Positions 2,230 through 35,779 of a stretch of 64,000 nucleotides of DNA are shown here, one piece after another. Each line of letters begins with the position of its first letter. The stretch's first letter is position 1. The notes beneath the pieces are model-generated. The model was given only the letters and a program-made list of their open reading frames with translations, ran no database searches and was not told the origin of the DNA. Origin of the DNA: Cyanophora paradoxa CCMP329 (taxonomy: Eukaryota > Plantae > Glaucophyta); contig QPMI01000038.1 in NCBI GenBank assembly GCA_004431415.1, forward strand, positions 1-64,000. Reading direction: 5' to 3'. A program made the position numbers and the translations under genes.

Positions 2230-3073
2230 ATGAAAGAATAACAATAAATTGCGACAGTAGAGACCTTGAAAATGGCGTGCTGCACTTGAAAACGCGCCTT
2301 AATAATGTAAGGCGATTTCGTGTGCTATCAGCTGAGATTCCCAATAGCTCTTATGTTGTTCCGCCCGATCAGACAATAACTATAACGCTTTTGAACGAAG
2401 AGCCCACAGTAATCCCCGCATCCAAAATGATAGCACCGATTCCAGCGTAAACGATTATTATTACGTCGATGCTGATAACGAACGATATCCGAAAGAGAGA
2501 GCTTTAAACAGTGATGCTTTACTCGGTTTTTCAGGCGGTTCTTTTAATCCTCTCGGTCTCTTCCCGGTTTCCTATTCTCTCGCTCTGTCTACGAACCGCT
2601 TCGTGTTCTCATCTCCGAATAGCCCTTTTACATTAGAGTCCTCAGACCAGGAGTTCTGTGACTGTCTCGGCATAGAACCCGGAGTGGTTTACGCCAGCAC
2701 ACCAGAACCAGTGCCGGTTCCACTCAGAGATTACCCCAGTCGCTACGCGATTATATGCCCGAAAATGGTCGACTTTAATGCAATTCCATATATTTACCTT
2801 GATATCGAAGAGCTCCGCCCTTTTACCAAATTCGCAGCGGTTACAGGTAGACAGAACAATGTCGACGACTCCTATCTATTGCGAATTCAGATGAATTCGG
2901 ACTTTGGTAGATATTCCTTTTACCACGAACCGAGCGCAAGCATCCCTTTCGTAAATGTCACATCGCAACTCGATTTAGATCGTCTCACAATATCGCTTCG
3001 AAAATGGCGGGGCTCTGTTGCGGATATAAACGGTCTCTCATACTCGTTCCAGCTCGAAGTGATCACCGATTAA
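2230..3073 (+). CDS. Penton/minor capsid-like protein 2, frameshifted at the 5' end
   Basis: ATG 2230, then in another frame RITINCDSRD..NVRRFRVLSAEIPNS. It continues into ORF 2603..3073 with YIYLDIEEL..LLRIQM..LDRLTISLRKWRG..DINGLSYSFQLEV. Confidence 0.65.
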
Positions 3074-4573: not shown

Positions 4574-4616
4574 TATCTTATATACTTCTTATATATCTTC
4601 TTTGTTTATAAAGAGG

Positions 4617-8339: not shown

Positions 8340-8376
8340 CAACCTTAATTTTTGTAGTATTCCATAATAGAGTATA

Positions 8377-11300: not shown

Positions 11301-11889
11301 AGATTTCGCCCATACTCACACAAAATCGGAAATCACGGATTTCCCAACCTTAGACCCATTTGTAGCGAACACGATCACAGCAAATAATACCATGTATGTG
11401 GGATCCGGTCAAATTTACGAACCAGATGCACCACTTTATTTAGAACAATGGTTTTTCCACAATTCCGCAAATATATACGATAAAACGTTATTATGTCGGG
11501 GAAATGCTTACGCAAGAGCATATTATGCAATGGATGAAACAGATAATACAAAGATTGCAAAACTTGTTTCAGAACAACGGGTCAATAAAGACCAGTATAT
11601 ACAGACAGGGAGTTTTTCAAATTCTTTAACAATCGTAGGTCCGGGTCATTGGGGATTTTCACAGGTTGTCACATTCCCAAAAGCATTTGCGCAAGCCCCA
11701 GAAGTGGTTCTCAATCTGAAACAAGGGTATAATGGTGGTTCATATGTATTGGTATATGGTGTCACAAGTTCCTCAACAACAACCTTTACTGTTAATGTAA
11801 CAGTTTCGGCAAATTATGAATTCAATGAAAGCATCGGACTTTTCCACTATCAAATGAGTTATATAGCAACAGGAAAGATGGTAGCATAA
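8377..11889 (+). CDS. Tail-fibre-like protein with HxH (phage tail repeat-like) repeats and gp53-like/H-lectin C-terminal domain
   Basis: HTHTKxxITDF and HxHxWEHITNxP repeats, YLPLTGGT motifs, and a C-terminal IQTGS..VTFPKAFAQAPEVV..STTTFTV..SYIATG. Confidence 0.8.
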   Translation: MTEPIVETTIKNAVLDNNFYITHANIPSESNDLIVDLKGYVMGAMASNLWNDIFGYEFGHIYDIANGIGYVDAMAGTAFRNLNCNCVGGWMFQICSNVDPSIDPATVTFDCNLFAPKTIFSITCNLVCSDVPIVAPVIGASNMYIQRNPVVHTGAEFILGDNTPISRIELPNSHKHLWEHITNAPFTYPPSSHEHLWEHITNRPLTFPPDPHTHDYLSLKGGVISSNLTISSNLTVTSNIYASNIYASNIYSSNLWASNINGSNVIVDYLTVKIEANLPNHPTSNVVLDWLAKQKHTKADITDFAHTHTKDQITDFAHTHLWEHITNPPSTFPPGKHTHDYSEITNSNHRHPWDEIDEQPVFAQLNAIGNVFNGVTLYQSINTPDRLFLNDHYVNLNGTFTGETGTPMVGTLAVRLPRDPIVNGVYSGDFNVGVNDTFPSIYVTNYHPGEIGQEADFSAAIQVNVTDQSAYDGARPKIVFTREKVVNYLPVVGQPTDDHGKCEIAWIKTTTGGALEVNQRMAAKNLHNTTLSGVVTDDYLESKNYVDDTELAAILEDYVTDTELTSALGDYLPLTGGTLTGDVHAPNFFVDTPNDQSFPVVHLGAEYVLDPNTPFSRLELPNVHRHFWEHITNAPLTYPPSSHEHFWEHIVNPPSTYPPDSHDHDYLPLTGGTIAGDVHASNFFVTTPNDQTFPVVHLGAEYVLDPNTPISRIELPNVHNVRPLTFAPYLHTHTKSEITDFSHTHTKSEITDFAHTHTKSQITDFPTFATVATTGNYDDLINTPTYTSPTDFDATSGISTDRTGDWRDYFGQPLVGDTSTWANTWIDGDDDCSSCKMYWTVPTDMKSCYIYYTCQYDSRYFDVVGIEPSNNTYTRLRVNAYAPGINPVRDFKQFVAINCEGLVKVGVHGQIGRIYLPGPITVGWSKNPAISSHSGFLHWNNIYGKPTASTTVGPHSHFKADITDFAHSHTKANITDFAHTHTKSEITDFPTLDPFVANTITANNTMYVGSGQIYEPDAPLYLEQWFFHNSANIYDKTLLCRGNAYARAYYAMDETDNTKIAKLVSEQRVNKDQYIQTGSFSNSLTIVGPGHWGFSQVVTFPKAFAQAPEVVLNLKQGYNGGSYVLVYGVTSSSTTTFTVNVTVSANYEFNESIGLFHYQMSYIATGKMVA

Positions 11890-11944
11890 TATTCTCACGT
11901 AATAATAATAATATTCTTACGTATTTATAAAGAACAATCAAAAG

Positions 11945-12943
11945 ATGTCGACTGTGTTTACCCCTGTGTTTTCCTTATCAGCCAGTGCTGTCCACAACGT
12001 GCAACACACTATATATGATCTAAGTGAGTCATTCCCTTCGACTGAGACAGCGAAAACCGATTCTTTCAATGAGACCTCCATTCTCAGAGTCAAAGAACTC
12101 AGAGCTGACAAGGCTGGTGGAATCGTTAAAGCTACTGAACTGATCGTATCGAATCGACCCGCAATATCTTCGGGGCTGGTCACCAAAGAAAATCTATATG
12201 AAGGTCAACAGGATTCCAAAACGACTTTTAATCCGGCTGACAGGAATTCGGCGGCTTTTCAAGTTTACAGTGGCGGGGCATGGATTGGGACTGGACTCTC
12301 AGTTAATGGGACAGTGACAGCTACTAACTTTGCGGGGGGATTCACAGGGTTACTCACAGCAAGTGGTGGAATTAAAACGAATTCGATTGACACTGTGGGT
12401 GCAAATGATAATGTTGTGATTAAACAAAATAACACAACAGTTGCTACAATCACATCAGGAGGGTTGTCAATTAATGCAGGTTACATTTCTAACAGACATC
12501 CTGTTTTCATGTTTTCTACTCCAAACACGAATACAGCTGGAACCGCAGGCACCAACACAAAAATTCCATTCAGTGTTTCACAATTTGAGGTAAACTCACC
12601 CACATTTAGCACTACCAACAATACGTTTCAAGCACCCATTAGGGGTATATACTTCTTTCAAGTGACCTTATATTTTATAGAAGTTACAGCAACATCCACG
12701 GATTTCACAATTGATATATCAAGCAGTTCAAGCTCGTTTACAGCCTATAATGCCCGCAATACTCAGCAGCTTTATAATGCATCTAAAAATGCTTCATTTA
12801 CTGGATTGGGAGTGAGTGCAACTTGGATAGTTCCAATGCAAGCAAACGATACAATATGTTGGTGGCTTTACTCACCACATGCCTACACTTATTTGAATGG
12901 AGGTAGATGCAATGTAAGTGGGTATCTTGTTTCCACATATTAA
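11945..12943 (+). CDS. C1q-domain fibre protein with shared N-terminal module
   Basis: N-terminal RVKELRADK.GG.VK module and a C-terminal C1q signature KIPF..FSTTNNTFQAPIRGIYFF..M.AND.I..SGYLV. Confidence 0.8.
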   Translation: MSTVFTPVFSLSASAVHNVQHTIYDLSESFPSTETAKTDSFNETSILRVKELRADKAGGIVKATELIVSNRPAISSGLVTKENLYEGQQDSKTTFNPADRNSAAFQVYSGGAWIGTGLSVNGTVTATNFAGGFTGLLTASGGIKTNSIDTVGANDNVVIKQNNTTVATITSGGLSINAGYISNRHPVFMFSTPNTNTAGTAGTNTKIPFSVSQFEVNSPTFSTTNNTFQAPIRGIYFFQVTLYFIEVTATSTDFTIDISSSSSSFTAYNARNTQQLYNASKNASFTGLGVSATWIVPMQANDTICWWLYSPHAYTYLNGGRCNVSGYLVSTY

Positions 12944-12964
12944 TTTCTGACACTATAATAAAAG

Positions 12965-13225
12965 ATGCCTACTATAAATTGTGATGTTTCAGACATTGAG
13001 GCACTTGCTATGACTGCATTCTTTACATCTGCACAAGATTGGATGAGAGAAGCTTTGAAATCTCGCACAGATATTGCGGTTAATGAGATTGTGGACAAAG
13101 AAGTGAAATCGTGTATTGGTGCTGGAATTCCGATTCCACTCACAAAGGAAGCGATTGTAGAGCAAGCTTTTAATCGGGGGACTGTTCGAAAGGCAAGCGA
13201 AATTCCTGTGAGTGCTCCTATGTAA
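12965..13225 (+). CDS. Small protein paired with C1q fibre (possible fibre assembly factor)
   Basis: 86 aa; clear homolog at 45366..45629 (QDW...R..IA..EIV.KE..SCI....IP..KEAIV.QAF.RGTV). Both lie directly downstream of C1q genes. Confidence 0.7.
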   Translation: MPTINCDVSDIEALAMTAFFTSAQDWMREALKSRTDIAVNEIVDKEVKSCIGAGIPIPLTKEAIVEQAFNRGTVRKASEIPVSAPM

Positions 13226-13246
13226 AGAGTCTGACGACTGGGTTTA

Positions 13247-14520
13247 TTGTTATTTTTCATAGATCATGCATAAGAAAGGCATGTATCTTGCATAGTGGGC
13301 GGGGCGCGAGTGGTTCCAGTGCATTAAATGGAACATTTCGATTGAAGTCGCGAGTGTGTGCAGGTGGGCATTTTCGGCATGCTTGCTCATGCACATACTT
13401 GCTTTCGTTATTTTTCATTGCTTGCGATAAATCGATTAATCGTGTTCTATCGTCGTACTTTGTCGATTATCGTACTCTATCGGTGGGGTTCACCTTGATT
13501 TCGTATTTGATCCATCCGGATTAAGGCTATCGGTGGGGGTCACCTTGATTTTTCAATTTGGGTAACTGAAAACAGTCCGGAAACGATCGGGAACATTTCG
13601 TAAAAATGAGGGTCTTACTGTCCTTACTGAGAGATCGGGGGAAAGTTAAAGGGCTTACTGGGAATGGTAAGGAATTAGAAAAATGAAGAATGAAAGGGTT
13701 TCGTGATTGGTTTCAGTAAGGAAGGGTTAGATGTTTGAAAAATACAATGTGGCTCAGTGCGAATTTGTGATTTTGTGACTGAGATTCGTGATGCTGAAAA
13801 TGTGCTTATTGAAAATGGTCGCGGGAAGGTCGCGCAATTGGTGGGGGTGACCACCCAGCGAGCGCCCCCGATCGCCGCGCCTACTCCGCCCCCTCGCCAC
13901 CCCGCCCCGCTGCTCGGCCCCACGCGCCGCCGCCGCCGCCGGCCCTGGTGGCCCCTGCCGAGATCCACCCGCCGACGCCTTCGCCGCTCCCGCCCCACTC
14001 CTGCCCGACCCCGCCCGGCCCGTGCCGGTGCAACTCCTTGGCTCCCGCGCTCGCCCTTCTCTCCCTATCAGAGCCGGCCCTCGCCTCGCTGGCCCCGGAC
14101 CTCGCGGAAGAATCATCCGCGTCGCCTCCGTCGTTTCTTCAGCTCCCCCGCCCCCCCACCCCTACCGGCTGAGCTGCAGGTTTCTGCTGCGCCGCCCTCC
14201 CGCCCCGACCTCCCCCTACCTGGCCTCCGTCCTGCAAAGTCCACTCGTGTACACCCCCGTACCCAGCGCCCGCTGACGCCCCTGCCCGCGCGCCCTCCCT
14301 TCTCGACAGCACGGGCACGTCGTAACGCTGCAGCCGCTCTCGCCCTGCGGAACAGCTGGCCCTCTTTACCGCCCCCAGAAGCTGTAAGGACTCGTCCGAT
14401 GGCTCCGCAGGCCAGCTCCCTCGCCGGCTCTCCTGCCCGGCCCCGGGGTTTCCGCCTCACGGTCCGCTTCGCGCTCTCGCCCGGCCGCTCTCTTCCCCGA
14501 CCCCGCCCGCCCCTCCTCGC
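13247..14520 (+). repeat. Left arm of a ~1.27-kb inverted duplication (partner 25827..27104)
   Basis: Reverse-complement match with a few substitutions and indels. It comprises the virus A end (13247-13863) plus LINE 5' sequence (13864-14520). Confidence 0.95.
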
Positions 14521-17500
14521 ATAAAACAGGAAGGGCGCCGGTTTGGTCGCGGAGAGGGAACGTGGGTGGGGGGCCAGGCGGAGCGGGGGTGGGGTGGCAG
14601 TGCGGGCAGGACAGGGCGGGTCCCCGTGCCCATTGTTCTGCGATCAGGGAGGAAATAGGGATGCCCCACATGCCAGGGTTGCAACGGTGGTACGCGACCA
14701 GAGGGGTGCCAGCCTCGGTCTGGGAGGTGGGGGCGAGTGTAAGATCCTCGTCCCAGTACCAGGCGGGGAGAGGCGTGTCACGGTCGGCGGGGACAGCGGG
14801 TTTGCAGAGGGAAGTGGGGTAGAAATGCCAGGTGGGGCCGGAACCCCTAGGATGGGCTAAGTAATAGTCGAGGGCGAGTTTCCTTGTAGGCCCGGGATCG
14901 GGGTAGTCAACATCAGGGGCGTCCTCGGGGAGTGGTTGAAGGAAGATTGGGTTGGGAGGGGAGCAGCACTGGAAGGAGATGCTGTGAGTGATGTCTCTGC
15001 GTCCTAAGGCTTCAAGGAAAGCGGAGTAGGCGCGGAGGATGTCGCAGTCCGAGACAATGGTCAGGTGTTCGTCGGAGAGAAAAAGAGTATGATCTTTGGG
15101 AAGTCGGATGCAGCGGTTCCAGATGACGGTGTCCTCCGCCGTGAAGGCGCGTTCAAGTCTGGCGGACGCGAGGGGGACGAGGTCAAGGACCAGGTGGGTG
15201 TTGGTAGTCTCGGAGGCATCTACATAGTCAACAAGGTCCGCTTGGCATCGGAGGAAATTGTAGTCGGTGGGGCTGTCAGCTAGAATATATGTGCGGATGT
15301 GCCGGCGAGGCGGGAAGAGGGACGAGAATAGTGACGGGGGGAGGGGTGGGGAGGAGTCGTCCGAAAAAAGGAGTCGGGCATCGGGGATGTCCATTCCACC
15401 AATATAGTGGTAGGGAGCCGAGGCAGAGAACGTCTGCGGGGCGGTAGGTAGGGGGGCAGCTGGTCCGCTGAGGGGGACACGGGGTCGGCGGGGGGAAGAG
15501 GGGGCCGGGCGGCGGGTCGTCGTTGGTGTCGGAGCCGTTGCAGGTGGCCGCGGGATGGTCTTTGGTTGGTGAGAGGGGACCCACTGAAGCGTGACTTGGA
15601 AGTTCGGGTCTTGGGCGATACGAATGGCGTATTGCGTTCGAGCGTTGAGGAGAAGGGCCCCGTCTTCTCGGCGGAGCAGGGTGCGGAAGTTGATGGGATG
15701 GGAGAAAGATGAAGGGTCTTGAAAGGCGAAGGCTGTCAGGGCTCGGATAGTGTTCTGACTGTCCGTGATAATTTTCCCGCCCGTGGGCCCGAAATACGTG
15801 AATGCTGCGGAGATTGTGCCTGCTAGCTCTCCCAGGTTCACGTTATGTTGGACGCCGGGGAGGCGGTGGGCGAACTCGATTTTGTCAGGCAGGTCGGGAT
15901 TATTTTCGAGGGGTGCAAGGCCGGCGTAAGTGGTTCGGACGGAGGCGGAGCCCTGTTTTTGTGTGCTGGCGTCCGTGTATATTACCCGGGGAGTAGGTCC
16001 GGAGGGAAGGGGCGGGGAGTTTAGTGCGCGGAGTGTAGGGCAGAGCTCTGCGAAAAGGGCTCGGGAGGTAATGAAAAGGAAGTCGAGCCCGGCCGGGGAT
16101 TCATAGAAGTCGCGGTCGGCTTGTGATGCGGGGGTCATAAGGCGTGGGCGTCTCTCGAGGGCAACATTGGTAGCCTGGGCCTCCGCTCGGAAAGAGTCCC
16201 ACCAGTCAGTTTCCCGGAGCCAGAGGTCGATGAAGCCAATGTGTGCGATTTCGCGGGGGAGGTTGGGAGGAGGGAGTTCGGGGTCATATTGAGCAGGAGG
16301 GGTAGCTGAGGAGGGGTCAAGGCGGGCTTTTTTAGCTGCGCGTGTGGGTTGAGCACGGGAGGGCTGCTGCCCTCTAGAGTGGGAGCATGTGAAGGCGGAG
16401 GTGGAGTCGGGCAGCTGCCGGGAGCGGGTGGGCACCGGCCTATTGAGATTGGAGAGGCTCGGAGACCAGCCCTTCGATTCGCACGACGAGCCTGCCGGGA
16501 TTCGGCGGACGTGAGATGCGTACTCGACCCATCGGCAAGCAGTCGTAGAGAGGCCCAGCTCGCGATGAAGCTGTTCAGAGCCGCAGTATTTTGGGTGAGG
16601 GCAAAATTGGAATTCCAATCTGCGTTCACGCCAGGCGGGGTCGAGCTCAAGCGCCGATAGACCGGGGTCGCGCGTGGAGAGGCCATCATATGGAATGAGG
16701 CAGTAATGGACGAGTTCCACCCCATAGTTATACTCTGAATCCCGGGGGCAGTTGGGGTCCGCGTCAGGGTCCTCGGAGGCCGGTTCGTCCAGGTTTTCGT
16801 CCGGGATCGGGGGTTTCCCAACGACGCGGCCAACTAGGCCTTGGGATGTCCATACAAAATCGCCAATTTTTAGTCCCGCAAGGACGGCATTAGCTTGGAG
16901 AGAGCGACGAATGTCTGGGATAGAGGGCGGCGGAGGCATAGGGTGGCGGGGGAGGAAAGGGGACCGGGTGGAGGGGCGGGGAAGAGAGAGTTCTTCGCGG
17001 ACAGCGTCCCACCAGGAGGGGGCACATTTGTAGTATGCCGGGACACGGCCGTGACTCCAGAGGAGGGACCATTCGGCAAGGGAGCCGTCAGGGGCCGTGA
17101 TGTCGCGGATTGTGAGGAGGCCGCAGCGATGGAGTCGCTGACCGGCTTGTTGGAGGGTGAGGGGCGACAATTGCGTTGATATAATATATTCTCGTCGAAG
17201 ATGGGATCGGCGGGAGGGGAGGCCATGTGTCCAGGAGTCGCACGTTGTGAGGATGTGATGGGAGGTGGAGGTCAGGTCTGCCGTGATGGCAAGCGTAATA
17301 TTTTTCTGTAGTGTGAGGGGCCCCGAGGGGAGGTTCGGATATTCGTGTGGGAGAAGGGGAAGCCCGTATCGGGCCTGGGTGTCGAGGACACGTTGTCGGT
17401 ATATTTGGCCGTAGAGTGATGATGTGTGAGAGGCTAGTTCCTGGCGGAGGCGCTCGTCGACGCACTGCTGTTGGCGTTGGATGACAGCTATTGAGGGAAG

Positions 17501-20500
17501 GCGATAGATGGAAGAGAAGGCAGCCGTGGATACGGACTGGGCCAGGTTGGCAGTGTGTTTGGCCGCGGTGAGCCAAACAGCGTCGAGAGATTGGCATTGG
17601 GATGGCGTTAAGGTCATGATGCGGAGAGGGTATGCCAGTTTAGGGAAGAGAACCCGATGTAGTATCACTTGGAATTCGTGAACGGTAATCTTTTTCGTGG
17701 CTAGGATCGAGATTGCAGATTGGAGCTGGGATTTGAGTAGGCGGACTTGGTGGGTCCAGGACAGGTTCGCAGTAAACTGGACGCCGAGGACGCGGAAGGG
17801 CGTTGTGGGGGAGAGGATGTGGCCAACCTCAGCTCTGGAATCGCCAACTCCGACATAGTATTTGCTCTTGACCGGCTCTTCGGATCGGGGGGGTTTCCAG
17901 TGAAAAATTTCCGTCTTTTTGGCGTTCAAGTTCATGCCATGGATATGTAGAAATTCGGACAGCCAGTCAAGCATATGTTGGAGGCCCTGAGCCGAGCTGG
18001 CAAGCATGGTGGTGTCGTCGGCGTATGCAAGCACAGAGACTTTGGGGCAGGGACCGGCGGGGAAGTAGAGGGGTTCGCCAGGGCATGGTGGGCGGGGGGA
18101 ACGGGGGCGGGTCGGATCAGATCGGTGCGGCCCAAGCTGGTAGCCGAAATTGGACTGAGTCGCTCGTTCTTCAATGGCGGTGAGAGCGGCGTCGAAGAAA
18201 ATGCGCCAGTGGAGGGGGGCTTCGATGCCACCTTGGGGGAGGCCACAGGGGACTTGAAAATATTCAGTGCGGCCGTGGGGGGTAAGGATGCACGCCGTGC
18301 GGTGTTGAGCTGCTTTTTTGTGGAGGGCTATATATCGTTTCCCTTCAGGATGGAGGTGGAGTTGGATACGGTTAAGGCTGAGCTCTTGGCTATGCCAGGA
18401 GACACTGTCGTAGGCGCTGGCGATATCCCCCAGGCCGCCAAAGATTGGCTTTTTGAACTGATGCGCGTCCTCGAGGGAGGATCGGAGGGCGTAGAGGACA
18501 GGGTCGGTAGATTCGCGGCGACAGAAACCATAATTACGGCCGCGTAGAATGTTATGTGTATCAATGCGGTCTTCCATGCGGTGGGTCAGGAGGCCTGTGA
18601 CCAGCTTCCAGGTGACTTCTTGAAGGGTGATGGGGCGGAGATCGGCGAGATCTGCTGAATTATCTCGTTTCGGGATAGCGTAGACTTGGCCGCGAAGTGC
18701 GTGGTCGGGCACGTGGCCGAGAAGAGTGGATTGAACTAGAGCTCGGATGGCGTCGCGCGAGGTGGTCCAGTGGGCCGCGGACTCGAAGCTGTTTATCTCG
18801 TCTGTAGAGTGTGAGGCGGCTAAGGTCTGGCGTTCCGTCTTGGAGAGGCGGAGGGGGGACCAGAGCATTTTAAGCATTCCGTTCGTGAGGCCGGAGGGAC
18901 CGCCAGCGCCATTGGACAGGGACGAGATGAGGCGATCGAGTTCGGGGTCCTCTGGCATGGCCATTAGCCCGTCCCAGACGGCGGGGGCGAAGTGGGAAAG
19001 GGGTCGGTACTGGCGTTTCCAAAATCTGCCCAACCAGGCGCCGTTTTCAATGACCTCGAATTTCGTAGCTATGGCATCCAGGTTTGGGGCGGCCTTGCGG
19101 AGTCGCCAGAAATTTTTGAAGTGATCCAGATGTGCGCGTTTAATTTCAGTGGGATCAGTGAGCACTTCGGGGAGTCCCGCTGCCGTGCGGGTAAGATACA
19201 GGCGAGGGGCGGATCGGAAGCGGGAGAGAAGGAGTTGAATAGCCCGACCCATGCTTCGACAGTGGGACAGGAGGTGGCGGCGGGTGTCAATATTGCGAGC
19301 GATGTCGGCTTCGGTGTATGCGCGGCGATGATTGTCCAGGGCGGCCCGCGCCTGTAAATACCACATGCTGAGTTGAGCATGGTACTCGGCGATTTCAGAT
19401 CCTGTAATGATACCATTCTCGAACTCAGGGTAATTAGGAGGGTCGGGGAAAGCGAGGAGGGAGGGGCAAAATGCCAGCGTGGTGTCCGAGCCCGCAGATT
19501 TTCGGATGTCTGTCACGTCTTTGGGAAGGTCCCGGAAAACAGCCCGAATAGTTTCGTCAGGCGGGTGGTCTGTGGAACCTTGGCGCGCCCAGTCGTTTAG
19601 GGCCTGTCCGACGCGGCCAACAAGTTGTTCGTCGTCAGCGTCCAGCGCAGACAAGTGGTTGAATTTAGCCATATCGCCCTGGGCGGCTACTCGGTGTTGG
19701 AGGACTTTTGCAGTAGAGAATTCTTTAGCGTGAGCGACGGACTTGATACTCTGGGCGATTGCGCAGAGGAGGGAGCGGTGGGATTTCGTGGCGCGGCGGG
19801 CGTAGTCGGGGCTGTTTTCGGGAGTGAGAAGGAGCTGGATATACCGCTGACCGTGTTTATTGAGAAAGGCTTCGACAGCGAGCTTGAAAGCAAGCCGGAT
19901 TGGTGCAGGCTGGGCGGCATAGTTGAAGAGAGGGGGGAGAGGCTGGGGTCGGGGCTGGCGGGGGGCGGTCGGGGGGGCAGAGAGCACTCCTTCGGTTGTG
20001 AAAGTCGCCAGTACTGGGAAGTGATCGGCTGAGAGCAGGGGGGAGGGTCGTCCAGGGACAGCCAGTGTACGAGTGCCCAGCGATCGGGCCGCTAGGGTGG
20101 GGGAGGCGAGGGCATAGTCGAGGCGGGCGGCGTTCAGGAGAGGGCGGTGGCCTTGCTCGTCGATGAAGTCTGCGTGGTGTGAGATGTGCGTGAAATCGCC
20201 GGGGGTACCGGTGTCGATGAGGCCCCAGGTCGCTCGGAGGAGGGTCCAGATTTCCGCGTAGGAGTTCGGGGGTGTAGTTTCGGTGCGCCGGTTGCCCCCG
20301 GTGATCCGGTCGTTGCACGGAGAGTGTGTGCTATTCATATCGCCGAGTACCAGGAGATGTGTCTGCCAGTCAGGCTCGTGGAGGTCAGGTGCGACCTTCG
20401 CGGTCAGGTATTCGGTGAGGTCGTGGAGCTCTTTTTGCAAATTGTCGTGCCCGCAGTCCGGTACATAGAGTGAGAGGACAATGAGGCGCTCGCGCGTGCG

Positions 20501-23500
20501 CGGGAAGTCAAACCGAGCGCCGGCTACCCGGCCGTCAAACGCGTAATCCGCCTGGCGGTGCGCTGCATAGCTTGCTGAGATCCACAGCGCGGAGCCGGCG
20601 GTGCCAGGACGGGCCGCGGAGGGAGGGGAGTAGACAAGGTAGCTAGATTTATGGCGGCGGACTGCCGTCTTAATCAGGTGATCGCGGATATTGGGCGGAA
20701 AGGGCTTCGAGGGGGGGCGGTCAACGGGGACCATGTCGACCTCTTGAAGAGCAACGAAGTGACAGTCCCAATCACGGCGGCCATAGTCGATTGCGCTGAT
20801 AAATTTAGTTGCAATATTGTTGCCGCTCGTCTTCCCCTCCAAGCGGCGAATATTCCACGTGAGGGCGCGGAGGTTCAGCTTCGCATTGGCCGCGTCCGGG
20901 GGATGTGCTAGGACGGGGATCTGGAGCACATCACGATGGCGGCGAGCGTCAATACGGTCAGCGGTGTAGAGGGAGGGAGGGTATAGCGTTAGAAGGGACG
21001 AGGCCGCCGTGACTAGTGTCGGGGAGGAGAGGGCAGCGGCGGCGGTAGCGACTGCAGCGGCCGTAGCTGTGCTGGGCTCAATGTCCGCAAAAGCGACGGG
21101 GACAAGGGCGGCGAGGAGAGCACAAAGGAGGAGGCGCGCGGGGAGAGGGGCCGGGCGGCTGAAGGTCCGTTGGACTTGTGGGGCGCGGCGCGCAGGCCGG
21201 CCCAGGAGTTCGAGACCGGCGTCATGCGGCGCAGCGTCCGTGGCGCCGGCGTCAGCGGGGCCAGCGCTGGCGTGCACGTAGGCACTGGCGCGGAAGCTAA
21301 CTGCGAGGTACGCGGCCGTGCGCGTGGCTGGTACGCGTCCGGATCCGTACGCGGGGCTCGTACGACAGCTCTCGGCGTCATGCAGCGCGGCGTCCGCGGC
21401 CGAGCTCGAGGCGCCGGCGTTGGCGGGGCTAGCACTAGCGTGGGCGCCGGAGCTAGCTGCGAAACCTGCAGTGGTAGTATCGGTGCTATAGCTAGGCGCC
21501 GGCACGCGACCGTACGCAGGGTTGGTGGTACTAGCTATAGCTATAGTGCAGCTATTAAAGCGCCAATCGCGGATTGCGGAGGTATTGGGCCGCTGCGATT
21601 CCTTCGAATCATTGCCCGACTCACCGGTCGCATGAATAGAAAAAACTGTTCGCGTTGGAGTTTTTTGACGGCACGCGGCGGGGGTACCGGTAGGCGCAGT
21701 TTCGTCCGGGGCCCTGAGACGTTCCGACCGGAAGGGGAGGCTCCACCGGCCACTGCAGTAGGCGGCGGCGCTGATGTGGCTTCCGTGCTCCAGTCCAGCG
21801 ATCAGGTTCTGGAGCATGCCGTAGCGCGGTCTAGCGAACGTGGTCCAGGAGGTGCTCCAGATGTAGACACGGCGACTGAGCTGCGAAAGTACTTGCGCGG
21901 CCTGCTGGATGCCGAGGCGAACAGCGCGGCGTGGAGCGGCAGCGACAGTAGCATCAGTACGGGGATTGGCCTCTCGAGCTCGCTGCGGGCCTGGAGACGC
22001 GCTCGACGGGCGGGGCGTTGCAGGCGGACCTCCGGGACACTTCTGCACACCGAGGTTTGTTCTAGGGGTCGGACAGTCGGCTCGGGAGGCCGACAGCGTT
22101 CTGGGGAGGCCGACAGCGTTCTGCAGGTCGAACGGAGGCGAGACAGGCGGCGCGATGGGGCCCGGCGGCGGCTTCACTTCAGGTCCAGGTCCGTCAGCAC
22201 GGGCGCGGCGCCGGGCAGCGGGGCGGCCGACAGCGTCCTGCAGGTCGCGCGGCGCGGGCGGAGGCGAGACAGGCTGCAGGCTGGGGCCCGTCGGCGGCTT
22301 CACTTGAGGTCCAGGTCCGTCAGCACGGGCGCGGCGCCGGGCAGTGCGGCGGCCGACAGCGTCCTGCAGGTCGCGCGGCGCGGACGGAGGCGAGACAGGC
22401 GGCGCGCTGGGGCTCGGCGGCGGCTTCTCTTCAGGTACAGGTCCGTCAGTCCGGGCTCGGCGCCGGGCAGCGGGGCGGCCGACAGCGTCCTGCAGGTCTC
22501 GCGGCGCGCGAGGAGGCGAGGCGCGGGGCGCGCTGGGGTTCGGCGGCGGATTCACGTCAGGTCCAGGTCCGTCAGCACGGGCGCGGCGCCGAGAAGTGCG
22601 GCGGCCGACAGCGTCCTGCAGGTCGCGCTGCGCGGGCGGAGGCGAGGCGCGGGGCGCGCTGGGGCTCGGCGGCGGCTTCACTTGAGGTCCAGGTCCGTCA
22701 GCACGGGCGCGGTGCCGGGCAGCGAGGCGACCGACGGTGTTCTGCAGGTCGCGCGGCGCGGGCGGAGGCGAGACAGGCGGCGCGCTGGGGCTCGGCGGCG
22801 GCTTCACTTGAGGTCCAGGTCCGTCAGCCCGGGCGCGGCGCCGGGCAGCGGGGAGGCCGACAGCGTCCTGCAGGTCGCGCGGCGCGGGCGGAGGCGAGAC
22901 AGGCGCGCTGGGGCTCGGCGGCGGCTCCACTTGAGGTCCAGGTCCGTCAGCACGGGCGCGGCGCCGGGCAGCGGGGCGGCCGACAGCGTCCTGCAGGTCG
23001 CGCGGCGCGGACGGAGGCGAGACAGGCGGCGCGCTGGGGCTCGGCGGCGGCTTCTCTTCAGGTACAGGTCCGTCAGTCCGGGCTCGGCGCCGGGCAGCGG
23101 GGCGGCCGACAGCGTCCTGCAGGTCTCGCAGCGCGGGCGGAGGCGAGGCGCGGGGCGCGCTGGGGTTCGGCGGCGGATTCACGTCAGGTCCAGGTCCGTC
23201 AGCACGGGCGCGGCGCCGAGAAGTGCGGCGGCCGACAGCGTCCTGCAGGTCGCGCTGCGCGGGCGGAGGCGAGGCGCGGGGCGCGCTGGGGCTCGGCGGC
23301 GGCTTCAATTGAGGTCCAGGTCCGTCAGTCCGGGCGCGGTGCCGGGCAGCGGGGCGACCGACAGTGTTCTGCAGGTCGCGCGGCGCGGGCGGGGGCGAGA
23401 CAGGCGGCGCGCTGGGGCTCGGCGGCGGCTTCACTTCAGGTCCAGGTCCGTCAGTCCGGGGGCGGTGCTGGGCAGCGGGGCGGCCGACAGCGTTCTGCAG

Positions 23501-25948
23501 GTCTCGCGGCGCGGGCGGAGGCGAGACAGGCGGCGCGCTGGGGCTCGGCGGCGGCTTCACTTGAGGTCCAGGTCCGTCAGCACGGGCGCGGCGCCGGGCA
23601 GCGGGGCGGCCGACAGCGTCCTGCAGGTCTCGCGGCGCGGGCGGAGGTGAGGCACGGGGCGCGCTGGGGCTCGGTGGCGGATTCACTTCAGGTCCAGGTC
23701 GGTCAGTCCGGGGGCGGTGCTGGGCAGCGGGGCGGCCGACAGCGTCCTGCAGGTCTCGCGGCACGGGCGGAGGCGAGGCGCGGGGCGTGCTGGGGCTCGG
23801 CGGCGGCTTCACTTGAGGGCCAGGTCCGACAGCACGGGCGCGGCGCCAAGCAGCGGGGCGGCCGACAGCGTCCTGCAGGTCTCGCGGCGCGGGCGGGGGC
23901 GAGGCGCGGGGCGCGCTGGGGCTCGGCGGCGGCTTCACTTGAGGTCCAGGTCCGTCAGCACGGGCGCGGTGCCGGGCAGCGGAGGGGCCGACAGCGTCTT
24001 GCAGGTCGCGTGGCGCGGGAGGGGGCGAGGCGCGCGGGGGGCTGGGGCCCGGCGGCACATGTGGCATGCGAGGCGTGATGCAGCTGGGGCCCCGGCAGGT
24101 GGTTAGACCCTGTCCGTCGATCCAACCAGTAGACGTCGGAGTGGTCATGCTCGAGGGCCCCTGTAGTCGCGTGCGGCCGCAAGCGAGGAGGGCAGCAGTA
24201 GCTCCAAGAGCAAGGAAAAGGGGACTGGGTAGAAGGGGGATGAGGCCTAGGGGAAGGTGCAGGACGGGATGCGCAGCAGCAGGTTGGATGTGCCACGAGA
24301 GGGCGGCGATGATGGTGAGGAACTTGGGGGAGTAGTGTGGGTACGGGGCTTTCTTATAGGGGCCACGGGGGGATATAGTGTCTAGAGCAGTTTGTAGGGT
24401 GTGGCCTGTTAAGGCGGAAACGGTCACTATCGAAATAAATTCTAGGGGCTCTGGAGGGTGACCGAGGAGGAGGAGGAAAGGCAGGGTAAACGGTGCAGCC
24501 AGCACAGCCGGGGCCAGGCCCGGGTCATCTGAGACATAGAGTGCATGCAGGAGATCAGCCCCGAGCTGCCATATTGCACAGGAGAGCACATGCCATTCGG
24601 CCGCTAGGAAGGCCGGGAAAATAATAGAAAATTCAAGGAGACGGGGTGCGAGAAGGAGAGCGAAGTCGGCGAGGCGGGTCCAAGCAAACGCTGCCCGGCG
24701 GCGTGCCAAGGGGGACAGGACCGGGGGGGGGCGAGGGGAGGTCGGGGGAGGGACAGGGCAGGTAAGGAGTTGAAGAAGAGCAGGGCCGGACGAGTCAAGA
24801 AACCGCCGGCGGCGCCGGGAGAGGAGTGCGAGCAGGAGGATCCCGGCAGCTGGCGGGGGAAGAGGCAGGGGGGTAGGGGGAGGCGGGAGCGGGGGGAGGG
24901 AGAAGGGTGGGAGGGGGGGAGCAGTTGCTCGGGGTGTCCTAGGAGGAGGGGCGGGGGGAGGGCTGGTCGAGGGGGCCGGGTACGAGGGATCAATGAGCCA
25001 TAGTGGGGACACGGGAACCGCTGCAATAACGAAGCGGAGGGCGCCGAAAAGGTGAGGGGCAGTTGTAAGGGGAGGGAGGGCAAGGAGACAGTGAAGGGAG
25101 AGGATAAGGAGGGGGACCCCGCGGTAAGGGCCTCCACATCGACGCCCTCGAGCTCGTCGCGCACGCTGGGCTTGCCGGCGGGCGCGGGTGAGGGGGGGAC
25201 GGTGGGCGCTGGGAGCAGGGTCGGGGAAGGCCAGATGGCGAAGAAAGCGGGAAGACAGCAGGAGGAGAAGCAGCGAGGGGAGGGCGAGGAAGGCAGGGGG
25301 GAGCTGAAGATAAGACGGAGGCCTGATAGAAGGGGGGGAGGAAGAGGCGGGAGAGGCGGAGAGAGGGGGCGGTGCTCTAGGGGTAGTCCACAAGGGGAGA
25401 GGGGGGGGGTCAGGGGGGGCCGAGAGAGGAGGCGATTCTGCGAAGGTCACTGCTGAGGGGGTCCAAGGGGGGGAAAGGAGAGTTCTATGTAAGAGCCGGG
25501 CAATCAGGGGGTGCAGGGGGGGGTACTCTGAGAGGCGGGGGGGTAACTGGAAGAGAAGTGAGAAAGGGAGTAGTGAGAGAGCGAGGAGAAAGGAAAGAAG
25601 AAAAAGGAGAGAGAGGGCGGAGAGGGCGAGGAGCTCGGGGGTTGTGATATGGGGCAGGAGAGGACACGAGTCATGTAGGAAGGCATGAAGGGGGGAAGTG
25701 GAGGCCGTACAGGAGGGAGGGGGGTGAGGGGCTGACGTTAATGGGCTTCGGCGCGGCTCCGGGGCGGGCTGGGGGCGGGGCTCTCGGGCTGGGCGGCGGC
25801 GGTTGGCGCGGCCCTTGAGGCGTCGGGCGAGGAGGGGCGGGCGGGGTCGGGGAAGAGAGCGGCCGGGCGAGAGCGCGAAGCGGACCGTGAGGCGGAAACC
25901 CCGGGGCCGGGCAGGAGAGCCGGCGAGGGAGCTGGCCTGCGGAGCCAT
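14366..25948 (-). CDS. Non-LTR retrotransposon polyprotein: long hydrophobic/repeat N-terminus, APE endonuclease, reverse transcriptase, RNase H; 3'-truncated at 14521
   Basis: APE: TWNIRRL, ALQEV, LGDMNS, RLDYAL, SADHFPV (~20860-20010). RT: LRPITL, DIASAYDSV, GLPQGG, YADD (~18020), FRVLG. RNase H: IYTDAS, ELAG, ITDSQ, QWVPSH (~15980-15570). The last ~50 codons read into the inverted arm. Confidence 0.92.
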   Translation of the reverse strand: MAPQASSLAGSPARPRGFRLTVRFALSPGRSLPRPRPPLLARRLKGRANRRRPAREPRPQPAPEPRRSPLTSAPHPPPSCTASTSPLHAFLHDSCPLLPHITTPELLALSALSLLFLLSFLLALSLLPFSLLFQLPPRLSEYPPLHPLIARLLHRTLLSPPWTPSAVTFAESPPLSAPPDPPPLPLWTTPRAPPPLSASPASSSPPSIRPPSYLQLPPAFLALPSLLLLLLSSRFLRHLAFPDPAPSAHRPPLTRARRQAQRARRARGRRCGGPYRGVPLLILSLHCLLALPPLTTAPHLFGALRFVIAAVPVSPLWLIDPSYPAPSTSPPPAPPPRTPRATAPPLPPFSLPPLPPPPTPLPLPPPAAGILLLALLSRRRRRFLDSSGPALLQLLTCPVPPPTSPRPPPVLSPLARRRAAFAWTRLADFALLLAPRLLEFSIIFPAFLAAEWHVLSCAIWQLGADLLHALYVSDDPGLAPAVLAAPFTLPFLLLLGHPPEPLEFISIVTVSALTGHTLQTALDTISPRGPYKKAPYPHYSPKFLTIIAALSWHIQPAAAHPVLHLPLGLIPLLPSPLFLALGATAALLACGRTRLQGPSSMTTPTSTGWIDGQGLTTCRGPSCITPRMPHVPPGPSPPRASPPPAPRDLQDAVGPSAARHRARADGPGPQVKPPPSPSAPRASPPPAPRDLQDAVGRPAAWRRARAVGPGPQVKPPPSPSTPRASPPPVPRDLQDAVGRPAAQHRPRTDRPGPEVNPPPSPSAPRASPPPAPRDLQDAVGRPAARRRARADGPGPQVKPPPSPSAPPVSPPPAPRDLQNAVGRPAAQHRPRTDGPGPEVKPPPSPSAPPVSPPPAPRDLQNTVGRPAARHRARTDGPGPQLKPPPSPSAPRASPPPAQRDLQDAVGRRTSRRRARADGPGPDVNPPPNPSAPRASPPPALRDLQDAVGRPAARRRARTDGPVPEEKPPPSPSAPPVSPPSAPRDLQDAVGRPAARRRARADGPGPQVEPPPSPSAPVSPPPAPRDLQDAVGLPAARRRARADGPGPQVKPPPSPSAPPVSPPPAPRDLQNTVGRLAARHRARADGPGPQVKPPPSPSAPRASPPPAQRDLQDAVGRRTSRRRARADGPGPDVNPPPNPSAPRASPPRAPRDLQDAVGRPAARRRARTDGPVPEEKPPPSPSAPPVSPPSAPRDLQDAVGRRTARRRARADGPGPQVKPPTGPSLQPVSPPPAPRDLQDAVGRPAARRRARADGPGPEVKPPPGPIAPPVSPPFDLQNAVGLPRTLSASRADCPTPRTNLGVQKCPGGPPATPRPSSASPGPQRAREANPRTDATVAAAPRRAVRLGIQQAAQVLSQLSRRVYIWSTSWTTFARPRYGMLQNLIAGLEHGSHISAAAYCSGRWSLPFRSERLRAPDETAPTGTPAACRQKTPTRTVFSIHATGESGNDSKESQRPNTSAIRDWRFNSCTIAIASTTNPAYGRVPAPSYSTDTTTAGFAASSGAHASASPANAGASSSAADAALHDAESCRTSPAYGSGRVPATRTAAYLAVSFRASAYVHASAGPADAGATDAAPHDAGLELLGRPARRAPQVQRTFSRPAPLPARLLLCALLAALVPVAFADIEPSTATAAAVATAAAALSSPTLVTAASSLLTLYPPSLYTADRIDARRHRDVLQIPVLAHPPDAANAKLNLRALTWNIRRLEGKTSGNNIATKFISAIDYGRRDWDCHFVALQEVDMVPVDRPPSKPFPPNIRDHLIKTAVRRHKSSYLVYSPPSAARPGTAGSALWISASYAAHRQADYAFDGRVAGARFDFPRTRERLIVLSLYVPDCGHDNLQKELHDLTEYLTAKVAPDLHEPDWQTHLLVLGDMNSTHSPCNDRITGGNRRTETTPPNSYAEIWTLLRATWGLIDTGTPGDFTHISHHADFIDEQGHRPLLNAARLDYALASPTLAARSLGTRTLAVPGRPSPLLSADHFPVLATFTTEGVLSAPPTAPRQPRPQPLPPLFNYAAQPAPIRLAFKLAVEAFLNKHGQRYIQLLLTPENSPDYARRATKSHRSLLCAIAQSIKSVAHAKEFSTAKVLQHRVAAQGDMAKFNHLSALDADDEQLVGRVGQALNDWARQGSTDHPPDETIRAVFRDLPKDVTDIRKSAGSDTTLAFCPSLLAFPDPPNYPEFENGIITGSEIAEYHAQLSMWYLQARAALDNHRRAYTEADIARNIDTRRHLLSHCRSMGRAIQLLLSRFRSAPRLYLTRTAAGLPEVLTDPTEIKRAHLDHFKNFWRLRKAAPNLDAIATKFEVIENGAWLGRFWKRQYRPLSHFAPAVWDGLMAMPEDPELDRLISSLSNGAGGPSGLTNGMLKMLWSPLRLSKTERQTLAASHSTDEINSFESAAHWTTSRDAIRALVQSTLLGHVPDHALRGQVYAIPKRDNSADLADLRPITLQEVTWKLVTGLLTHRMEDRIDTHNILRGRNYGFCRRESTDPVLYALRSSLEDAHQFKKPIFGGLGDIASAYDSVSWHSQELSLNRIQLHLHPEGKRYIALHKKAAQHRTACILTPHGRTEYFQVPCGLPQGGIEAPLHWRIFFDAALTAIEERATQSNFGYQLGPHRSDPTRPRSPRPPCPGEPLYFPAGPCPKVSVLAYADDTTMLASSAQGLQHMLDWLSEFLHIHGMNLNAKKTEIFHWKPPRSEEPVKSKYYVGVGDSRAEVGHILSPTTPFRVLGVQFTANLSWTHQVRLLKSQLQSAISILATKKITVHEFQVILHRVLFPKLAYPLRIMTLTPSQCQSLDAVWLTAAKHTANLAQSVSTAAFSSIYRLPSIAVIQRQQQCVDERLRQELASHTSSLYGQIYRQRVLDTQARYGLPLLPHEYPNLPSGPLTLQKNITLAITADLTSTSHHILTTCDSWTHGLPSRRSHLRREYIISTQLSPLTLQQAGQRLHRCGLLTIRDITAPDGSLAEWSLLWSHGRVPAYYKCAPSWWDAVREELSLPRPSTRSPFLPRHPMPPPPSIPDIRRSLQANAVLAGLKIGDFVWTSQGLVGRVVGKPPIPDENLDEPASEDPDADPNCPRDSEYNYGVELVHYCLIPYDGLSTRDPGLSALELDPAWRERRLEFQFCPHPKYCGSEQLHRELGLSTTACRWVEYASHVRRIPAGSSCESKGWSPSLSNLNRPVPTRSRQLPDSTSAFTCSHSRGQQPSRAQPTRAAKKARLDPSSATPPAQYDPELPPPNLPREIAHIGFIDLWLRETDWWDSFRAEAQATNVALERRPRLMTPASQADRDFYESPAGLDFLFITSRALFAELCPTLRALNSPPLPSGPTPRVIYTDASTQKQGSASVRTTYAGLAPLENNPDLPDKIEFAHRLPGVQHNVNLGELAGTISAAFTYFGPTGGKIITDSQNTIRALTAFAFQDPSSFSHPINFRTLLRREDGALLLNARTQYAIRIAQDPNFQVTLQWVPSHQPKTIPRPPATAPTPTTTRRPAPSSPRRPRVPLSGPAAPLPTAPQTFSASAPYHYIGGMDIPDARLLFSDDSSPPLPPSLFSSLFPPRRHIRTYILADSPTDYNFLRCQADLVDYVDASETTNTHLVLDLVPLASARLERAFTAEDTVIWNRCIRLPKDHTLFLSDEHLTIVSDCDILRAYSAFLEALGRRDITHSISFQCCSPPNPIFLQPLPEDAPDVDYPDPGPTRKLALDYYLAHPRGSGPTWHFYPTSLCKPAVPADRDTPLPAWYWDEDLTLAPTSQTEAGTPLVAYHRCNPGMWGIPISSLIAEQWARGPALSCPHCHPTPAPPGPPPTFPLRDQTGALPVLCEEGRAGSGKRAAGREREADREAETPGPGRRAGEGAGLRSHRTSPYSFWGR
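22085..24055. repeat. Coding tandem repeat, 126-bp unit (42 aa), 15 full units plus one partial
   Basis: A CAGCGTCCTGCAGG-like anchor recurs at 22231, 22357, 22483 ... 23992, with one 123-bp unit. It encodes PPPSPSAPRASPPPAPRDLQDAVGRPAARRRARADGPGPQVK. Confidence 0.97.
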
Positions 25949-27104
25949 CGGACGAGTCCTTACAGCTTCTGGGGGCGGTAAAGAGGGCCAGCTGTTCCGC
26001 AGGGCGAGAGCGGCTGCAGCGTTACGACGTGCCCGTGCTGTCGAGAAGGGAGGGCGCGCGGGCAGGGGCGTCAGCGGGCGCTGGGTACGGGGGCGTACAC
26101 GAGTGGACTTTGCAGGACGGAGGCCAGGTAGGGGGAGGTCGGGGTGGGAGGGCGGCGCAGCAGAAACCTGCAGCTCAGCCGGTAGGGGTGGGGGGGCGGG
26201 GGAGCTGAAGAAACGACGGAGGCGACGCGGATGATTCTTCCGCGAGGTCCGGGGCCAGCGAGGCGAGGGCCGGCTCTGATAGGGAGAGAAGGGCGAGCGC
26301 GGGAGCCAAGGAGGTGCACCGGCACGGGCCGGGCGGGGGTCGGGGCAGGAGTGGGGGCGGGAGCGGCGGAGGCGTCGGCGGGTGGATCTCGGCAGGGGCC
26401 GCCAGGGCCGGCGGCGGCGGCGGCGCGTGGGGCCGAGCAGCGGGGCGGGGTGGCGAGGGGGGCGGAGTAGGCGCGGCGATCGGGGGCGCTCGCTGGGTGG
26501 TCACCCCCACCAATTGCGCGACCTTCCCGCGACCATTTTCAATAAGCACATTTTCAGCATCACGAATCTCAGTCACAAAATCACAAATTCGCACTGAGCC
26601 ACATTGTATTTTTCAAACATCTAACCCTTCCTTACTGAAACCAATCACGAAACCCTTTCATTCTTCATTTTTCTAATTCCTTACCATTCCCAGTAAGCCC
26701 TTTAACTTTCCCCCGATCTCTCAGTAAGGACAGTAAGACCCTCATTTTTACGAAATGTTCCCGATCGTTTCCGGACTGTTTTCAGTTACCCAAATTGAAA
26801 AATCAAGGTGACCCCCACCGATAGCCTTAATCCGGATGGATCAAATACGAAATCAAGGTGAACCCCACCGATAGAGTACGATAATCGACAAAGTACGACG
26901 ATAGAACACGATTAATCGATTTATCGCAAGCAATGAAAAATAACGAAAGCAAGTATGTGCATGAGCAAGCATGCCGAAAATGCCCACCTGCACACACTCG
27001 CGACTTCAATCGAAATGTTCCATTTAATGCACTGGAACCACTCGCGCCCCGCCCACTATGCAAGATACATGCCTTTCTTATGCATGATCTATGAAAAATA
27101 ACAA
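25827..27104 (-). repeat. Right arm of the inverted duplication
   Basis: Reverse complement of 13247..14520. Confidence 0.95.
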
Positions 27105-27213
27105 CAGTGCGAATTTGTGATTTTGTGACTGAGATTCGTGATGCTGAAAATGTGCTTATTGAAAATGGTCGCGGGAAGGTCGCGCAATTGGTGGGGGTGA
27201 CCACCCAGCGAGC
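26488..27213. mobile_element. 726-bp non-coding TIR element (internally deleted provirus A) with 109-bp TIRs and 6-bp TSD GGGGGC
   Basis: GCTCGCTGGGTGGTCACC... at 26488 is inverted at 27105-27213. GGGGGC flanks it at 26482-26487 and 27214-27219. Confidence 0.85.
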
Positions 27214-28820
27214 GGGGGCCCCGGTGGAGGCCCCGAGGTCCAGTGTCGACTGCGCGGGGTGCGGACTCGGCAGCATCGTCTAGGCGCCGGCGCCGTCGGA
27301 CCCAGCACCCCAAGCCGATTCCCACGGACAGGCTAAGCGCCGTGAGTATCGCCAGGGCGGCCCAGCTGGGACTAGATAGGGGCCCGAGGATCTCAGCGGC
27401 GCAGACGGAGGGAAAGAGAGCCCAGGCGGGGGGGTCAGCTAGGGGCCCGAGGACCGGAGCGAAGCTGGCCGCCGTCGGGAGGAGGGCGAGGAAAAGAAGG
27501 GAAAACAGACCGGGGGTGGAAAGGCCAGGTCGGGGGCCCGGGTTTCTGCGGTGGTAAAGCGACATCAGAGAGTCGGGGTGCGGCGGCGGGCGGCGAGCAG
27601 GCGGGCGGAGGCGCGCGCGCCGCGGAGAGCGAACAGCAGGGGGGCATCTTACCCCGGTGAGCCTTGCGGCCCCCGGGGATCGACGCGCGGATTGCCTATC
27701 CACGGAGAGCCGGACCGCTCGACGACGGCGTGTGGCCCCGTGGTATCGGCGCAACGGGGGGGACCGGACGGATAGCCAAACCGCGCGACGACGGTGTAAG
27801 GCCCCGTTACATCGATCCGTTTGTGAATTGAGGGGGGGCTTATTCACGGATAGCCAAACCGCGCGACGGCGGTGTAAGGCCCCATGACATCGGCCAGAGG
27901 GCGGCATGCCTTTAGCGTCGGCAGCGAACGCGGGGGGCACGTCGTTCGAACGTCGGCCGCCCGCGCCCGCCACGCAGTGAAAGAGTGGTGATTTGAGAAC
28001 TGCGGGGCGGGCGTGAGGCCCGGGCGGGTGGCGCGAACGACGCGCGAGGCGGGGTGATGTCCCTTCGCAAGGGCGCATCGCACGGGGGCTTCTGCAGGAA
28101 GAAGGAGCATGTTCAGGATGCCGCCGCCCGGCTCGAGTTCCGTCGCGGGCGGCGTGTGTTGTTCGGTGGTCGCGCGGCCCTGGAATGGGCGCGGCGCCAC
28201 ATCGTTCGACTCCCTCTGCACCGCCGAGCTGCGACGCCGCTAGGCTTGCGCCTTGTTGTTGGCGGTGCGTCGCGAGCCGTGATTTTGGCTCCGGTGTGCT
28301 CGGGCGGTGTCCTCCGGCTCCGTTTGGTGCCGGGAGGCTGCTTATGCTGCTGGACGATGCGCGAGCATCGCCAGTTTCCCGTACGCGCAGGCCTTCGCGA
28401 TGGCCTGGGTACATCGTTTTTTTTCCTTTTCTACGCGAATCCGGAAGAGCAACTTCAGCTGCCGGATGCGTTCGCAAGTATTGAAAAGATGAAGGAGCTG
28501 AAGAGTTTGCATATCAGTGAGCTCCTTCATCTGCAGATCTTTTTCCTCTGAAGCCTTTCCGCGCAGATCATACGGCGGTTGAAGCTTTGGCCGCGGCCGC
28601 AAAGTTGCCGGGTTTCGACCTTCCGAAAATTTGCAAGCTTTCAGTTGACCTTACCGGGGCCGAAAACTGGGCGTACGGTCATCCTGAAGTGCCTACACTT
28701 ATGGAAGACATCGTTCGTCCTGAGGTATCTTTCATTAACCAACTGTGATCGCACACATCGCTCACATCGCTCACATCGTAATCCGCGCAGGTTTTTCCGA
28801 AACTTGAACGAATCGAGTTA

Positions 28821-33395: not shown

Positions 33396-33424
33396 TAAGA
33401 ATACCTTAGAAAAATTAATTAAAC

Positions 33425-33697: not shown

Positions 33698-33719
33698 ACT
33701 CTATATATAACCAATATTC

Positions 33720-35776: not shown

Positions 35777-35779
35777 TTA

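Follow-up and report, generated by a model that had tools for sequence, protein, structure and literature searches.

How does one nucleotide of a host retroelement come to border both a gene-bearing virus and a short segment made of viral ends? The question is raised by a stretch of 64,000 nucleotides from Cyanophora paradoxa CCMP329 (contig QPMI01000038.1, positions 1 to 64,000), which we call the window. In this window, a stub of 726 bp, U, lies within a long interspersed nuclear element (LINE), and the end of a virus-like element, A, adjoins the same LINE base 12.6 kb away. We consider it somewhat probable that U is what is left, after emptying, of one integration of a Polinton-like virus (PLV) into the LINE, and that A is a second copy of the same integration; U likely arose by an interior deletion between two short matching sequences in the viral ends. 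A preliminary description of the locus had proposed one site in two states, full and emptied. This is still the best reading, except that the "full provirus" is not shown: the other end of A lies beyond base 1.

The stub and the end of element A

The ends-only stub is a real feature of the DNA (Table 1). Its terminal inverted repeats (TIRs), 26488-26596 and 27105-27213, are exact reverse complements over 109 bp, with a mismatch at the next inward base, and the 6-bp target-site duplication GGGGGC is the sole perfect flanking direct repeat among lengths 3 to 11; the preliminary description had all these coordinates right. A parse with a 110-bp TIR and a 4-bp duplication fits the window equally well and was dropped: other flanks start exactly at 27213. 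Splicing was also rejected, the removed interior ending in TA, not AG, on the LINE sense strand. The GC content of U is 0.445, versus 0.65-0.75 in the LINE, and its left end holds a small terminal hairpin with arms GGTGG/CCACC (DNA fold of the first 40 nt, -5.3 kcal/mol, without shuffle control). Self-comparison finds the 109-bp segment three times in the window, and the 33-nt terminus has 3 occurrences there versus 0 in 100 shuffles; patterns of the terminus had no match in the collections viral_contigs and metagenome_contigs. Short, non-coding, with TIRs and a duplication, U has these features in common with a miniature transposable element with inverted repeats (MITE).

The link to element A is a single inverted block, found by self-comparison and 1274 bp long on the side of A and 1278 bp on that of U, that pairs 13247-14520 with 27104-25827. 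Its viral part, 13247-13863 against the reverse complement of 26488-27104, has 0 differences in 617 positions, and both copies abut the same LINE base, as had been claimed; on the side of A the abutting letters are GCCCCC, which is GGGGGC read on the other strand. The LINE part, 13864-14520 against 26487-25827, is 99% identical: 5 positions are substituted, and single Cs are missing at 4 others, the missing Cs being all on the side of A.

The probable deletion junction

The last 13 nucleotides before 27104/5 match a partner in the TIR of A at 12 positions. This site is unique in the TIR (14 of 592 windows, all at one site), and 57 of 20000 random pairs of breaks score as high as the junction, an optimistic count, since the window sizes were picked after the junction was seen. 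One orientation of the motif is found near the inner edge of the TIR, the opposite orientation about 120 bp from the tip; with the TIRs inverted, copies on opposite termini form direct repeats around the interior. Microhomology at a join is the expected mark of slippage or of microhomology-mediated joining. Descent of U from the virus through loss of its interior, as proposed earlier, is supported. The preliminary description also pointed out that identity with A stops at 13247/27104, exactly where the second TIR begins: the coordinates are correct, but this is no separate coincidence, being a tautology of one deletion junction.

The favored history has three steps. An integrase, presumably of rve type, would have put the virus into the LINE frame, creating the 6-bp duplication that is seen. 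The locus would then have been copied together with its flank; the copy could be a duplicate of segmental or fold-back type, a homologue, or a sister in another cell. Finally, one copy would have lost its interior by a slip or by end-joining between the near-identical 12-13-nt motifs, giving the observed junction. If the TIRs paired as a panhandle, the motifs would come to lie side by side; a further 7 nt were lost. For polintons, such a model is cited in bioRxiv 10.64898/2026.07.28.741278 (here and below, statements on papers refer to their accessible parts). Having no genes, the stub would depend for any movement on an integrase provided in trans, and no sign that it moved was seen among the contig matches listed for three short-read runs.

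Evidence from short-read contigs

Independent data come from contigs of short-read runs: 4 of 24 runs were compared with 11000-16500, and 3 with 26370-27340. Contig depth is a hint and not a copy number, and contigs lose rare paths; ratios below are relative to A's low-depth contig 12355-13135 (depths 76, 104, 35 and 46). The outer terminus reaches 23-30x, the segment 26629-26741 25-26x, and a variable stretch ~8x. The LINE flank beside the site is at 1.5-1.8x, and the contig of U's right junction at 2.9-3.6x, a value that includes LINE words possibly common to empty paralogues. Inward of the terminus, the continuation of A at 13230 has ~15x in runs X1 and X3, and the total depth there is ~29x in X9 and X11, half of it from a variant.

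The terminus is multi-copy in all four runs. Variants of the family diverge at 13229 in each of them, not at 13247, and also at 27098 (X3, X11). Since the sequence inside 13247 is also multi-copy, with variants leaving at 13229 and 27098, position 13246/7 is not a foreign joint; that a contig crosses it we infer from depth and variant rows. Depth and the two divergence points make a true TIR of ~611-635 bp likely. The segment 13247-13863 is likely most or all of it, and the 109 bp in U are likely a remnant, which suggests that U consists of one near-complete TIR and 109 bp of the other. The middle of the TIR is plastic: at 13312-13550, the contigs of the four runs commonly show terminus variants that lack 89-170 bp internally. 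Joints at 13941-14495 and similar ones were put aside, their sides being of 21-24 letters in GC-rich repeats.

The same terminus is inserted elsewhere: contigs exit exactly at 27213 and at 26488 into unrelated DNA that is absent from the window, and both flanks carry AGTAGA, this site's own 6-bp duplication. The X3 listing has both flanks, that of X11 has one, and X1 gives a mixed consensus of two contigs. As for the LINE site, contigs of X1 and X3 reproduce U's right junction exactly, reaching 30 letters into the TIR, and in X11 one contig begins precisely at 27213, the expected branch point of filled and empty sites. A paralogue contig of X9 aligns from exactly 13864, with 105 unaligned letters preceding, and the four Cs missing from the flank of A are restored in contigs.

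Element A and the host LINE

Judging from its major- and minor-capsid-like genes, both of them leads, element A appears to work like a Polinton-like virus. The major-capsid-like fragment has a recognition value of 1920, under the threshold of 2300, and the penton-like open reading frame (ORF) one of 1665, also below threshold, so that each is a lead only. The fragment has no sequence match in Pfam, PHROG or PDB (PDB under E 0.9); none of its 17 pattern matches in viral_contigs is a relative, none of 9 candidates is a sequence homologue of the penton-like ORF, and an exact look-up matched 0 of 6 proteins. No packaging ATPase, replication gene or integrase was found among the scanned ORFs of A, which continues beyond the window. 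A feature shared with Polinton-like elements is the 5-6-bp target-site duplication, GGGGGC at U and another 6-mer at the second site. In 1-2600, on the minus strand, the capsid-like gene and a second penton-like gene of A appear frameshifted in the assembly, whether through errors or through decay. The last gene of A, of 86 amino acids, has a homologue in another element, B, which lacks A's terminus; a 106-aa ORF on the opposite strand, 12940-13260 (-), was dropped in its favor.

Table 1. Coordinates of the features of the locus
Feature	Position	Strand	Remarks
Major-capsid-like fragment of A	326..1195	-	Atlas feature scores 0.93-0.94, with Capsid_N / Capsid_NCLDV clusters; gene appears frameshifted
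Minor-capsid (penton)-like ORF of A	2603..3073	+	unnamed viral clusters at 0.97-0.98; nearest named cluster Sputnik V18/19 (52% of members), at 0.96
Accessory genes of A	3080..12943		patatin, tail-fibre-like and C1q-like proteins
Last viral gene of A, 86 aa	12965..13225	+	stop 21 bp inside shared terminus; homologue in element B near 45390-45650
Terminus of provirus A	13247..13863	-	identical to first 617 bp of U; multi-copy in 4/4 runs
LINE flank of A, 657 bp	13864..14520	+	inverted copy of 25827-26487; begins with reverse complement of duplication
Head-to-head inversion join	14520..14521		LINE flank of A to 3' part of U's LINE; readable side without microhomology
LINE ORF, 3860 aa	14366..25948	-	endonuclease-like region, reverse transcriptase, weak RNase H; last ~51 aa from inverted flank
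Left duplication GGGGGC	26482..26487	+	6 bp
U, ends-only remnant, 726 bp	26488..27213	+	one viral terminus (617 bp) joined to the outermost 109 bp of the opposite one
Left terminus, outer 109 bp	26488..26596	+	perfect inverse of 27105-27213
Deletion junction	27092..27105	+	12/13-nt microhomology; partner 13736-13747 in TIR of A, ending 7 nt before retained segment
Other terminus, outer 109 bp	27105..27213	-	its sole surviving part; contigs exit to other flanks exactly at 27213
Right duplication GGGGGC	27214..27219	+	junction 27184-27340 without difference in X1 and X3 contigs
Upstream part of LINE frame	27214..28477	-	stop-free across reconstructed empty site

The host element is unusually large and unclassified. 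With an endonuclease-like region, a reverse transcriptase and a weak RNase H in one ORF, it is a LINE of apurinic/apyrimidinic endonuclease (APE) type with RNase H: RVT_1 is found at E 1e-18, RNase H at E 0.005, below the cut-off, and the endonuclease region aligns to homologues carrying PF03372, the best relatives being 24-28% identical. When U and one duplication are removed, the frame is stop-free from 28300 to the ORF, or ~4460 codons from 28477; hence U breaks into a LINE frame of great length, in its 5' part. That the empty site is in frame is weak evidence on the length of the duplication, as 726 and 732 can each be divided by 3. Before the endonuclease, the 3860-aa ORF has ~1700 aa that include five hydrophobic stretches and, at 22100-24056, a tandem array of 42 aa (126 bp). 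CpG is not depleted in the host-like DNA, and the contigs of the runs amount to 69-123 million letters, which makes a GC-rich unicellular eukaryote the likely host. A paralogue in EukProt is 82-86% identical, and paralogues in contigs differ by ~6-8%; the paralogue P0010 ends before the position of 14521, and the natural 3' end is not displayed. The ORF has no terminal Cys/His knuckle, of the kind seen by eye in several homologues, and there is no tail at 14521; for these reasons, 14520/1 looks like a break rather than a natural 3' end, bearing in mind that the homologues are only 24-28% identical.

Weighing the explanations

Several observations count against the history of one integration in two states. 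Its main rival is a chimeric join: the stub or A would be real, but A's link to the LINE base or the 14520/1 join would be a misjoin through the multi-copy TIR, or a fold-back or ligation chimera. The TIR is indeed multi-copy; the second insertion site, with both its junctions, could be the true home of A, misjoined through the shared TIR; and the head-to-head join has no readable microhomology. The flank of A lacks four Cs and carries at least two bases that none of the contigs listed shows, the substitutions at 13949 and 14253, as would be expected of a segment with poor support. Absent among the contig matches listed are junctions 27104/5, 26487/8 and 14520/1, a weak point, given that contigs lose rare paths; the 30 TIR-side letters of the right-junction contigs are one under the 31-letter rule for a bridge; and the inner edge of the TIR is not fixed, given the ~29x with half variant in X9 and X11. 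The microhomology join is 7 nt away from a clean product, and the other end of A and an integrase are outside the window. There are also precedents: assembly of endogenous mavirus-like elements (EMALEs) was troubled by TIRs, repeats and heterozygosity (PMC8547959), and false consensus was reported for PLVs (PMC10120064). Misassembly, which the preliminary description had named as a refuting case, is neither confirmed nor eliminated by the contigs. Nevertheless, we hold a chimera to be rather unlikely. A plain fold-back of a stub molecule would run into the second end of the stub, not into viral genes; the depth of the flank fits two copies, though as a hint only; homopolymer errors in the flank are not significantly enriched (4/23 versus 0/16 runs, p 0.13); and the junction of the stub has microhomology, with its right LINE junction present in two sequencing runs.

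The integrase could prefer this LINE nucleotide, so that two LINE copies were hit independently and one later emptied. The distribution of substitutions, 0/617 in the viral part versus 5/657 in the LINE flank (Fisher p 0.063), slightly favors such separate LINE copies, or polishing effects, over a single integration, and the depth of the right-junction contig points the same way, with the reservation on empty paralogues made above. Targeting of a LINE family, put forward in the preliminary description, is improbable all the same: the same terminus stands in unrelated DNA with a different 6-mer, the two flanks are 99% identical when paralogues differ by ~6-8%, and sequence-specific integration was not found for EMALEs (PMC8547959). 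Both termini of U are intact and the duplication is perfect, as a mobile MITE or defective satellite would have it, excised or copied and re-integrated by a helper integrase, and fragments that retain TIRs and duplications are suggested to transpose after gene loss (bioRxiv 10.64898/2026.07.28.741278). However, a site common to the stub and the gene-bearing end is unlike a new jump. In three runs, 8/91, 9/113 and 9/71 records on the stub region are partial, the terminal loose ends listed lead to one other site, and no high-depth joint matching the stub junction is among those listed. An amplified MITE is not supported, one other insertion site of the exact terminus being seen in these runs, and a nascent mobile MITE, as once suggested, is highly improbable. 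We give very little credence to retrotransposition, by which a LINE transcript carrying the provirus would be copied, with a jump of reverse transcriptase over the TIR stem where the microhomology lies and insertion of the daughter into the parent element at 14520/1. It would account for the common site, the microhomology and the local inverted position, and the LINE frame is intact, but the missing knuckle and tail at 14521 suggest a break rather than a natural 3' end, and the rest of the parent LINE was not found after the 5' end. There is, finally, hardly any chance that U is an independent MITE, or an excision footprint unrelated to a deletion. Element B does have the 86-aa gene without A's terminus; yet the multi-copy sequence inside 13247, with variants that join at 13229 in 4/4 runs, makes 13247-13863 a genuine viral end. 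Excision would remove the termini of an element, and U retains both, together with the duplication.

If a single integration in two states is thus preferred, the side-by-side arrangement is a different matter. That one molecule carries both states, separated by 12.6 kb, is plausible, and we advance it tentatively, as the pairing of stub and gene-bearing copy may be an assembly join. More speculative, and in our opinion doubtful, is the conjecture that Polinton-like proviruses have a built-in route of self-emptying, an inverted-repeat counterpart of the formation of solo long terminal repeats (LTRs): a repeated motif internal to the TIR would become a direct repeat upon pairing of the ends, and the interior would be repeatedly looped out in place. 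If so, ~0.7-kb stubs with intact ends should exist, which helper viruses could mobilise as virus-derived MITEs, and the window would show a parent together with its product at a single site. Should there be only one stub, with its pairing with A an assembly join, what remains is an ordinary deletion.

Other features of the window

Two further low-GC virus-like elements stand in tandem at 31700-40300 and 41470-54700. They have a common gene block, 33470-35463 versus 43364-45359, 87% identical, with genes for an S-adenosylmethionine (SAM) decarboxylase, an HNH-like protein, a tail fibre, an S74 chaperone and C1q; no capsid gene was noticed in either element. Their left edges hold a 42-nt inverted repeat (31699-31984) and a near-perfect hairpin with 46-nt arms (41471-41565), next to which palindromic TGTGACAGG arrays may be origins. 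An rve-like integrase ORF at 53663-55168 (-), beside a patatin gene, belongs to an element other than A; a palindromic array lies nearby at 52900-53100, and a tRNA-like stretch near 55040-55130 was seen by eye, with no ARAGORN call. Near-identical tandem duplications occur beside viral edges, at 30054-31022 (482 bp) and 40718-41503 (262 bp). The GC-rich remainder, 55600-64000, has long ORFs of 425, 596 and >1551 aa without PHROG matches, and is possibly another retroelement.

Comparison with known systems

Protist genomes carry tens to thousands of such proviruses (PMC10120064). Their loss, or their conversion into passengers, is little documented, and a stub with a readable junction beside its likely parent offers a route of decay that can be tested. 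Surveys that rely on capsid genes or on size filters, such as one that kept inserts of 6-80 kb (PMC12220804), do not see ends-only stubs. In the literature searched, from which most subscription journals are missing, we found no description of an ends-only PLV stub at the site of its parent.

Endogenous PLVs and virophages of protists (PMC10120064, PMC12220804, PMC8547959) resemble this locus in being low-GC islands in a GC-rich host, with 5-6-bp duplications and many related copies; their TIRs of several hundred bp have a likely counterpart here, and their major and minor capsid genes have candidate counterparts in A. They differ in that the accessible parts of these papers describe no ends-only remnant at the site of a gene-bearing copy. 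Closer in kind are the PLV and virophage fragments of Halocafeteria seosinensis (bioRxiv 10.64898/2026.07.28.741278), which keep TIRs and duplications, lie in LINE-rich loci and have terminal palindromes. They lack most core genes, while U is gene-less, with a visible junction and a possible parent; equally small remnants may exist among them. Degraded Mavericks are known in vertebrates (PMC8097293), and no non-autonomous Polintons were found in the anole lizard (PMC3014272). In internally deleted derivatives of TIR transposons, as in hAT families (PMC3014272), both ends and the duplication are kept and the interior is lost, as in U. The parent of U would be a capsid-encoding virus, unlike theirs, and no amplification is seen in three runs.

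Ds and KP elements are likewise internally deleted, non-autonomous derivatives, and Kapitonov and Jurka reportedly described non-autonomous Polintons in 2006. Solo LTRs of retroviruses offer another parallel, that of an emptied provirus at its original site, with its duplication; they arise by recombination between long direct repeats, whereas U has inverted ends and a join at a short motif. Among these systems, U is likely a deletion remnant of a Polinton-like provirus, of a known kind, with a clean junction and, as a snapshot, of unusual clarity.

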